From a virus (taxonomy: Duplodnaviria > Heunggongvirae > Uroviricota > Caudoviricetes): a stretch of 64,000 nt of DNA. Below the pieces are notes generated by a model that saw only the letters and a program-made list of their open reading frames with translations, did not search any database and was not told the origin of the DNA. Positions 15,277-15,563 of this stretch are shown here, in pieces (positions within the stretch are counted from its first letter, which is position 1; each line of letters starts with the position of its first letter). The DNA lies in the IMG/VR virus record IMGVR_UViG_3300049830_000314, one strand, 5' to 3'. The translations under genes were made by a program, and so were the position numbers.

Positions 15277-15563
15277 TGGTGGGGATACTCGGACTCGAAC
15301 CGAGACGCTGTTTAGGCGGCAGATTTTCTTACCACTATAGTTTTCACTACCATTTCCGTGTTTGTGGTCTGGACTTTCTCTTCATCATATCTTTCGACTT
15401 AGACGTGTCGTGTTAAGTCTCTACACCTTCCTGATTTCTCAGGCTTGGCTCGGGATTGTCATTTTAAAAATTTCCCCGAATTTACGACATTCTACTTTTT
15501 GAGTTTCCTCAAAAGCACTCAAATTAATAAGTCTGCTGCGGCTACCAGTTACGCCATACCCCC
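15277..15563 (-). tRNA. tRNA-Leu (UAA), class II, interrupted by a group I intron between U34 and A35; CCA encoded
   Basis: The 5' exon (15529-15563) gives GGGGGTA acceptor, D-arm GCG-TAACTGGTAGC-CGC, anticodon stem GCAGA and CTT. The 3' exon (15277-15327) gives AAAA, TCTGC, a long variable arm CGCCTAAACAGCGT, T-arm CTCGG-TTCGAGT-CCGAG, TATCCCC-A-CCA. Discriminator A73. Confidence 0.8.
15328..15528 (-). ncRNA. group I intron (about 201 nt) in the tRNA-Leu anticodon loop, homologous to the cyanobacterial/plastid tRNA-Leu(UAA) intron
   Basis: Begins after U (P1: ACUU|AUUAAUUU|GAGU) and ends with G. It contains AATCCCGAGCCAAGCC, GGAAGGTGTAGAGACT and GAGAAAGTCCA blocks that match conserved blocks of the Anabaena tRNA-Leu intron, and a GAGAC...GTCTAAG P7-like pairing. 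Confidence 0.7.

Follow-up and report, generated by a model that had tools for sequence, protein, structure and literature searches.

A group I intron in the anticodon of a tRNA-Leu(UAA) gene of probable huge-phage DNA, next to an HNH endonuclease gene that may share in its mobility

The window analysed here is a 64,000-nucleotide (nt) stretch of DNA from IMG/VR virus record IMGVR_UViG_3300049830_000314. Positions 15277–15563 of its minus strand carry a tRNA-Leu(UAA) gene that is almost certainly split by a group I intron. Taken as a whole, the locus is read with considerable confidence as a class II tRNA-Leu(UAA) gene of a phage, in which a 201-nt IC3-like ribozyme that has no open reading frame (ORF) lies between U34 and A35 and has an HNH endonuclease as its putative partner in collaborative homing. 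The parts of the split gene are the following.

15277..15563, minus strand: whole split tRNA-Leu(UAA) gene, called by ARAGORN with introns allowed; its exon stems covary in 41 homologues
15529..15563, minus strand: exon 1, 35 nt, with the acceptor 5′ strand, D arm, anticodon-stem 5′ strand, C32, U33 and U34
15328..15528, minus strand: group I intron, 201 nt, no ORF, IC3-like architecture, from Rfam, ARAGORN, the exon junction and covariation
15277..15327, minus strand: exon 2, 51 nt, with A35 and A36, the anticodon-stem 3′ strand, long variable arm, T arm, acceptor 3′ strand, A73 and CCA

The reverse complement of 15563–15277 reads GGGGGUAUGGCGUAACUGGUAGCCGCAGCAGACUU, then 201 nt, then AAAAUCUGCCGCCUAAACAGCGUCUCGGUUCGAGUCCGAGUAUCCCCACCA. 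With introns allowed, ARAGORN reports tRNA-Leu(taa) c[15277,15563], 86 nt when spliced, with a 201-nt intron at gene position 35/36. This position corresponds to U34|A35 because the D loop holds one extra base. When joined in silico, the exons give a class II tRNA fold with a variable arm of 3 bp and 7 nt, A73, an encoded CCA and the anticodon loop CUUAAAA, and the insertion site is 34/35 in the UAA anticodon of a class II tRNA-Leu. The spliced product would be a normal tRNA reading UUA/UUG; the codons TTA and TTG together form 52% of the Leu codons in the long ORFs of the window.

A search of the entire 64-kb window against all 4227 Rfam families gives a match to RF00028 (Intron_gpI) at 15538–15347 on the minus strand, with 55.1 bits against a gathering score of 50 and an E-value of 3e-11. 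The match ends 19 nt before the true 3′ end of the intron because the model misaligns P9. The Rfam boundary at 15347 is rejected, as the exon junction, the terminal G and the covariation of P9 all put the end at 15328.

A group I intron in a tRNA-Leu(UAA) gene at 15277–15563 had been proposed in an earlier sequence-only reading, which gave no strand; its coordinates prove exact. It had also rebuilt a class II tRNA-Leu with anticodon loop CUU|AAAA, and it described a 201-nt intron that starts after U34, with a U.G pair of P1 at the splice site, and ends in G. All of these are found, the final G being 15328, and the Intron_gpI check it had proposed yields the match above the gathering score. A 69-amino acid (aa) plus-strand ORF at 15445–15654 had been called spurious and placed inside the locus. 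The first part stands and the second does not, since the ORF runs 91 nt past the tRNA gene; it is antisense to the intron, exon 1 and the end of the HNH gene. Both this ORF and a 53-aa minus-strand ORF over the locus are rejected as mechanical ORFs and not genes.

The fold of the intron was assessed on an alignment of 41 distinct precursors, including that of the window. Homologues were gathered from viral contigs with P7 and P9/exon-2 junction motifs from the window's own clade, and near-duplicates were removed. Helices P1–P10 were assigned by hand and then converted to window coordinates, all on the minus strand.

15518..15531: P1 hairpin, exon CUU 15531–15529 with internal guide GAG 15520–15518
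15523–15521 with 15327–15325: P10, possible, UUU with exon-2 AAA
15495..15515: P2, 8 bp with one bulged A and a GAAA tetraloop (15507–15504); compensatory changes in 8/8 pairs, in agreement with the minimum free energy (MFE) fold
15489–15484 with 15411–15406: P3, enclosing P4, P5 and P6/P6a; compensatory changes in 6/6 pairs
15480–15475 with 15454–15449: P4; four pairs invariant, one compensatory, one varying only by unpaired cells
15471–15458: P5, short; compensatory changes in 3/3 pairs among homologues
15448–15426: P6/P6a, GAAA loop; compensatory changes in 1/2 pairs of P6 and 5/5 of P6a
15421–15416 with 15375–15371: P7, forming a pseudoknot with P3; the region 15371..15421 encloses the P3 3′ strand and P8
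15384..15404: P8 hairpin, GAAA loop; outer and inner pairs covary
15332..15367: P9 three-way junction; P9 is CCAC/GUGG, 15367–15364 with 15335–15332
15360–15351: P9a
15349–15338: P9b, UAGU-GAAA-ACUA, GAAA-capped; compensatory changes in homologue L001
15328: terminal (omega) G of the intron

On this structure 96.7% of cells in the alignment fall in standard pairs, compared with 77.7% in shuffles, and compensatory changes are found in 52 of 77 pairs. The covariation score is 0.511 against 0.155 in shuffles, and none of 500 shuffles reaches the observed value. When the 3′ partners are slid by 1–3 columns, pairing is 34–40% and the covariation score 0.065–0.097. P2, P3 and P6a covary throughout, while P1, most of P4 and P7 are near-invariant yet paired. 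Covariation supports the core helices P3–P8, including the P3/P7 pseudoknot. The single-sequence MFE fold independently recovers P2, P3, P4, P6a, P8, P9 and P9b, and P9 shows a C-G to U-A change in six sequences.

P1 reads (A)CUU/GAG(U), with U34 (15529) paired to G15520 as the U.G pair at the 5′ splice site. All 41 sequences have the same three P1 pairs, among them the splice-site U.G, and the same terminal G15328. The exon bases GACUU|AAAAUC also are the same in all 41 intron-bearing genes, whereas the outer pairs of the anticodon stem vary; this invariance fits a P1/P10 constraint, a DNA recognition site, or both. The P7 blocks GTAGAGACT ... AGTCC are almost invariant across the 41 sequences, with 99.5% of cells paired. 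P7 is the guanosine-binding helix in group I introns generally and is inferred to be so here. P8 holds a variant of the 11-nt GAAA-tetraloop receptor, UCUAAG (15403–15398) with UAUGA (15389–15385), where the homologue consensus is CCUAAA...UAUGG. By analogy with the IC3 introns of Azoarcus and Anabaena, it is presumed to be the docking site of the L2 GAAA loop. IC3 introns are compact, at ~200–250 nt, and lack P5abc. Their motifs are seen by eye in the window: the GAAA of L2 at 15507–15504, UCUAAG/UAUGA in P8, and the GAAA-capped P9b. By inspection, the architecture is IC3-like.

The intron in all likelihood remains able to splice, as judged from its sequence. The precursor would fold into P1–P9, with the L2 GAAA loop docked on the P8 receptor. 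A free guanosine, bound at P7, would attack just 3′ of U34, the base that the U.G wobble keeps in P1. In the second step the freed 3′-OH of U34 would attack the bond that follows the terminal G15328, a short P10 keeping exon 2 in line.

The best blastn match of the locus is in a 735,411-bp uncultured phage (LR756501/LR756503), with 78% identity over 235 nt. LR756501 and Agrobacterium phage Atu_ph07, an isolated 490-kb phage, have tRNA-Leu(UAA) introns of 205 and 278 nt respectively, both at the 34/35 site, that align with the window's intron over their full length. Both introns are unannotated, and the Atu_ph07 record gives the 3′ part of its split tRNA as hypothetical protein AUZ94936.1. In IMG/VR the P7 block has at least 120 matches and the 22-nt intron/exon-2 junction is present in at least 120 contigs. 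ARAGORN finds a tRNA-Leu(UAA) with an intron in at least 93 of the junction contigs (93 among the matches listed); among these matches the introns are mostly 194–218 nt, with a subset of 600–750 nt. For some homologues ARAGORN shifts the intron boundaries by a few bases and so mislabels the tRNA, e.g. as 'Tyr ata' or 'Phe gaa' where the loop is CUU|AAAA; such labels were left uncorrected.

Bacteria were scanned with the P7′–P9 signature AGTCCAGACYACAAAC, one genome per species. Among the matches listed, the signature is found in tRNA introns of Alpha- and Gammaproteobacteria, Clostridia, Acidobacteriota, Bacteroidota, Nitrospirota, Patescibacteria and others, and the interrupted genes are tRNA-Leu(UAA) (32), Met/fMet (14), Arg(UCU) (12), Thr (10), Leu(CAA) (9), Tyr (7) and others. 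Some bacterial tRNA-Leu(UAA) introns with the signature, again among the matches listed, are 680–725 nt long and contain an HNH homologue. A joint alignment was made of 81 tRNA-Leu(UAA) introns, the window's and 80 others, one of which, from Nostoc PCC 7120, is the cyanobacterial reference. The window intron shows 75–79% identity to introns of viral contigs and 73–75% to the two best introns from bacterial metagenome-assembled genomes (MAGs), those of a Sediminibacterium (Bacteroidota) and a Rhodospirillaceae.

The Intron_gpI model at E <= 0.001 finds no match in the clear homologues L001 (2994–3284), L002 (1253–1614), L130 and L150, and Rfam is therefore unfit for counting the intron family. 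The family has probably been overlooked because the model fails on such homologues. Phage introns that go unannotated make tRNA counts and codon-coverage estimates for phages too low. On these sequence comparisons the intron appears to belong to a large phage-borne mobile family that is common in phages. A transfer of the intron into a phage tRNA had been suggested previously; the family supports this in general terms, and the adjacent endonuclease gene had not been seen.

Introns with the same core are also found in other phage tRNAs which, by their ARAGORN labels, are Arg CCU, Pro UGG, Leu CAA, Thr UGU, a UCA-anticodon tRNA, Lys and Asn. The loci are L022, L024, L053/L080, L073, L079, L104, L123 and others, and L003 1461–1653 is also listed. 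L150 has three intron-bearing tRNAs. In Pelagibacter phage HTVC120P the capsid gene is annotated as two coding sequences that flank a match to the intron core.

A further gene is found beside the split tRNA of the window.

15623..16303, minus strand: free-standing HNH homing-endonuclease gene, 226 aa, matching phrog_10822 'HNH endonuclease' with an E-value of 1e-39

The gene ends 59 nt upstream of the split tRNA on the same strand and thus is adjacent to the intron but outside it. The N-terminal ~140 aa form the HNH domain, with the motif HHVDGDRTNN...NLQLLCPNCH visible in the translation; the C-terminal ~85 aa consist of a Cys-rich segment and a weak, sub-threshold helix-turn-helix match. The Pfam HNH match is below cut-off (18.8 vs 21.4 bits), and a sequence search shows no relative of the protein in PDB. 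The protein is 60% identical over 139 aa (E-value = 1e-61) to ORFs inside the 688-nt tRNA-Leu(UAA) introns of L130, L137, L155 and L196, and 32–41% identical to endonucleases inside the 690–750-nt introns of other viral contigs. In the alignment the homologues of the 688-nt group are situated in the P6 loop (L6) and those of the 690–750-nt group in the P1 loop (L1). L150 has a layout like that of the window: its tRNA holds a 194-nt intron, and an HNH gene 62% identical to the window's precedes that tRNA by 14 nt. In many contigs the intron of the tRNA-Leu(UAA) has no ORF and an HNH homologue lies 12–150 nt from the tRNA, upstream or downstream and on one strand or the other.

An intron-less tRNA with the exact spliced anticodon stem-loop of the window is present in 115 viral contigs. 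The linkage of the HNH homologue to the intron was counted at loci with at least ~700 nt of flank, as follows.

60 unique intron-bearing loci: HNH homologue inside the intron in 9, within 300 nt in 19, none in 32
78 intron-less tRNA-Leu(UAA) loci: inside in 0, within 300 nt in 0, none in 78

Linkage is thus 28/60 against 0/78 (Fisher p = 7e-13), and together with the 60% identity it ties the enzyme to the intron in evolution. It suggests collaborative homing. The HNH gene is, with moderate preference, taken to be the partner of the intron, and it probably spreads it. Most likely the enzyme would cut the anticodon-loop site of tRNA-Leu(UAA) alleles that lack the intron, in relatives infecting the same cell. 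The carrier's own gene would be protected because the intron splits the site there. Repair of the cut would then copy the endonuclease gene and the intron together into the recipient. An arrangement of this type, that of F-CphI and the psbA intron of cyanophage S-PM2, is the one for which the name collaborative homing is used (PMC6083498).

Three points count against this role of the enzyme. The compared loci are mutually related, so that the Fisher p overstates their independence. The 32 intron-bearing loci with no HNH homologue nearby show that the intron persists without the gene. The enzyme could also act elsewhere in the tRNA cluster by analogy with T4 SegB, a free-standing endonuclease of the T4/T6 tRNA cluster (PMC13096335). 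The latter leads to the alternative that survives best, in which the HNH gene is unrelated to the intron and is, like T4 SegB, a free-standing tRNA-cluster endonuclease with another target, or one that promotes amplification of the array. The same-isotype tRNA repeats of the window could stem from amplification, and the loci that lack the gene also agree with it. However, the closest homologues of the enzyme are encoded inside introns of the same family, and homologues lie within 12–150 nt of many intron-bearing tRNA-Leu(UAA) genes and beside none of the 78 intron-less ones. The unrelated enzyme is thus considered the less likely explanation, one of minor but real weight, and partnership with the intron is preferred.

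The endonuclease gene is found in four positions relative to the tRNA-Leu intron: in the P1 loop, in the P6 loop, free-standing upstream and free-standing downstream. A broader proposal, put forward only tentatively, is that the intron travels with an HNH endonuclease recognising the DNA of the tRNA-Leu anticodon loop, the gene of which has been caught in these four positions. If true, this would provide the missing mechanism by which an intron long regarded as ancient and immobile has come to be scattered patchily across phyla, and would overturn the published claim that phage introns occur only in protein-coding genes (PMC3984707). An endonuclease gene in two intron loops or on either side of the tRNA also offers a natural series for the gain and loss of group I mobility, and allows a direct test of whether the tRNA-Leu intron spreads horizontally.

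Upstream of the HNH gene are two further features.

16361..16870, minus strand: array of six Leu-anticodon tRNAs, GAG, UAG, GAG, UAG, CAA and an atypical intron-less UAA, from ARAGORN and Rfam
17082..17111, minus strand: sigma-70-like promoter, TTGACA-18 nt-TAGAAT, 11/12 matches, from a consensus scan only

No convincing terminator is found between the promoter-like site (17111–17082) and the split tRNA. The Leu array, the HNH gene and the split tRNA probably form one transcription unit, so that the precursor would be transcribed together with the upstream tRNAs and the endonuclease gene. A strong 11-bp GC-rich hairpin at 16910–16939, between the promoter-like site and the first Leu tRNA, is the source of several weak Rfam matches below threshold, e.g. 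to NsiR1 and leader families. Four of the Leu-anticodon tRNAs (GAG, UAG, CAA and UAA; 16361–16691, minus strand) have short variable arms and are ~75–82 nt long, unlike bacterial class II tRNA-Leu, and stand beside two normal long-arm Leu tRNAs (GAG and UAG). The intron-less UAA tRNA (~16361–16436) directly precedes the HNH gene; it is atypical, and ARAGORN needs a relaxed threshold to report it.

The window is very likely DNA of a huge phage. At 12049–13386 (minus strand) it encodes a 445-aa valyl-tRNA-synthetase (ValRS)-like protein in which the N and C halves of the catalytic domain are joined directly, with no editing (CP1) domain. The best tblastn match of this ORF is in LR745206, a 634,780-bp uncultured phage, with 46.7% identity over 97% of its length; a protein-guided search of viral contigs shows no match to it. 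The 723-aa ORF of the window has no match in phages by tblastn. The window also encodes a glutamyl-tRNA-synthetase (GluRS) catalytic domain, Thg1, a release-factor domain, a formyltransferase, an RNA-ligase-like protein and a GOLLD RNA, and contains 25 or more tRNAs, all on the minus strand. Al-Shayeb et al. place their largest genomes in a 'Mahaphage' clade and predict that their >634-kb genomes replicate in Bacteroidetes (PMC7162821).

A bacterial chromosome or another large extrachromosomal element with tRNA arrays is an unlikely source. No capsid, portal or terminase gene is recognised in the 64 kb, which speaks for such a source, as does the lack of a near-identical phage record when 22 kb spanning the locus are compared with the phage collection by megablast. 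On the other side, the best matches of the locus and of the ValRS without an editing domain are in huge phage genomes, and several ORFs match PHROG families. The tRNA arrays, truncated aminoacyl-tRNA synthetases, release-factor domain, Thg1, RNA ligase and GOLLD agree with the gene content described for huge phages (PMC7162821). A non-phage source would in any case leave the identity of the intron unchanged.

The tRNAs of the window include single-isotype tandem arrays, all on the minus strand, at 6564–6811 (Phe x3), 16361–16870 (Leu x6), 20839–21342 (Glu x5), 45511–45775 (Tyr x3), 53225–53388 (His x2) and 56249–58470 (Pro x5–6). Some are near a matching enzyme: the Glu array abuts the GluRS catalytic-domain ORF (19958–20866), and Thg1, the tRNA-His guanylyltransferase (48788–49855), is a few kb from the His pair. 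The GOLLD RNA at 34450–34916 (minus strand; Rfam RF02032, 154.3 bits, E-value = 2.7e-41) has a tRNA (34774–34848, minus strand) within its variable region; with the anticodon UCA it would read the UGA stop and may be a suppressor tRNA. Two good tRNA matches on the minus strand, 20922–20992 and 58396–58470 (Rfam 48.7 and 49.7 bits), have 6-nt anticodon loops, for which ARAGORN gives the two-base 'anticodons' tt and cc. An ARAGORN 'tmRNA' at 57721–58106 (minus strand) covers two Pro tRNA genes where Rfam has no tmRNA match and is probably a false positive. Other minus-strand ORFs are the RNA-ligase-like one at 27761–28480, possibly for tRNA repair, a protein-kinase-like ORF beside a PP2C phosphatase at 59554–62579, and a 698-aa protein (23089–25185) that matches the MXAN_6230/SCO0854 RING-domain family and phrog_33734.

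It is improbable that the intron is a decayed, non-splicing relic and the locus a tRNA pseudogene. Several observations do weigh against an active ribozyme. P5 is weak in the window copy, with a U-A and a U.G pair and an A.C mismatch. The Rfam score is only 5 bits over its threshold. The thermodynamic z-score of the intron alone, −1.46, is weak and uninformative. The motif-based gathering of homologues under-samples variation in P7–P9 and so inflates the conservation seen there. In addition, the window has another UAA-anticodon tRNA 800 nt upstream, one that lacks an intron. However, that tRNA is the atypical one of the Leu array, and the low Rfam score reflects the model, since clear homologues are missed by it altogether. 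The 40 other homologues have 135 columns with a conservation of 90% or more, and the window deviates at three of these: a C-G to U.G and an A-U to G.U change keep their pairs, and the third is in the D loop. The match to the family consensus at the remaining 132 positions, together with the pairing kept in the helices, argues against decay. The splice-site U.G, the terminal G, P7, J8/7, the tetraloop and the receptor elements are all intact. The pseudogene reading is rejected, and a working intron is retained as the likely one.

The sequence-only reading had noted three blocks shared with the Anabaena/chloroplast trnL intron, and CAATCCTGAGCCAAGCC, GGAAGGTGCAGAGACT and GAGAGAGTCCA do all occur in the Nostoc/Anabaena PCC 7120 precursor as given in the supplement of PMC13011429. 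It had also seen a hint of a cyanobacteria-associated host, which is not supported. Descent from the cyanobacterial/plastid tRNA-Leu lineage, as a mark of a cyanophage or cyanobacterial host, has in its favour the identical insertion site, the three core blocks and a few cyanobacterial genomes with the P7′–P9 signature, the latter in tRNA-fMet and not tRNA-Leu in the cases checked, but is highly improbable: identity to the single cyanobacterial reference, Nostoc PCC 7120, is 58%, the lowest of the 80 introns compared and well under the 75–79% reached by phage introns, the Nostoc intron has AGTCCAATTCTCAAAG where the window has its P7′–P9 signature, that signature is spread over many phyla, and the nearest GenBank relatives of both the locus and the ValRS-like gene are uncultured phages of 735 and 634 kb. 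Group I introns at the 34/35 site of tRNA-Leu are, moreover, already known outside cyanobacteria from a 2026 survey (PMC13011429). On these comparisons, with one cyanobacterial reference among them, a cyanophage or cyanobacterial origin is rejected.

The ribozyme, the insertion site and the host tRNA are of a well-known kind, and it is the phage setting that is apparently new. A 2014 review states that all phage introns known to date were in protein-coding genes despite the many tRNA genes of phages (PMC3984707). The main text of the huge-phage survey makes no mention of introns (PMC7162821). Full-text searches, in which few subscription journals are covered, turn up no account of a group I intron in a tRNA gene of a phage.

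Several known systems can be set beside the locus. The Nostoc/Anabaena PCC 7120 intron is likewise in the UAA anticodon of a class II tRNA-Leu at the 34/35 site, with the splice-site U.G and terminal G, the core blocks AATCCYGAGCCAAGCC, GGAAGGTGYAGAGACT and GAGARAGTCCA, and a P9 three-way junction with a GAAA-capped hairpin. However, the window intron is 48 nt shorter, without the long P5 and P6 extensions, its P9 is CCAC/GUGG against UUCUC/GAGAA in Nostoc, and it is linked to an endonuclease gene in a phage-like genome and not in a cyanobacterium. The Azoarcus tRNA-Ile(CAU) intron is also an IC3 ribozyme of ~200 nt in an anticodon loop, with the L2 GAAA docking in an 11-nt receptor of P8 and a GAAA in L9. 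It differs in the tRNA and the insertion position, is GC-rich and thermostable, and has no linked endonuclease.

Among the bacterial non-cyanobacterial tRNA introns of the 2026 survey (PMC13011429, mSystems 2026) the tRNA-Leu 34/35 site recurs, most belong to the IC subgroup and some carry an HNH gene, including a Bacteroidota tRNA-Leu(UAA) intron with an HNH endonuclease gene. The survey covers complete bacterial genomes only, without phages, and the endonuclease gene of the window is outside the intron. Lak megaphages show conserved introns in tRNA genes of very large phages; the preprint (Devoto et al., bioRxiv 10.1101/356790) describes them as 'enigmatic', previously unreported and perhaps widespread among large phages. 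The Lak introns are in Phe, Gly, Thr and Tyr tRNAs and are unassigned to group I; they are compared here from their description only.

The closest parallels to the intron and enzyme pair are F-CphI with the S-PM2 psbA intron (PMC6083498) and T4 mobE with the defunct I-TevIII (PMC2790892). Both have an ORF-less phage group I intron with an adjacent free-standing endonuclease gene, and in the model for both the intron interrupts the target of the enzyme and the two move together. In the window, by contrast, the predicted target is a tRNA gene and not a protein gene, the putative partner enzyme is of the HNH and not the Endo VII type, and introns of the family encode its relatives in either of two loops.

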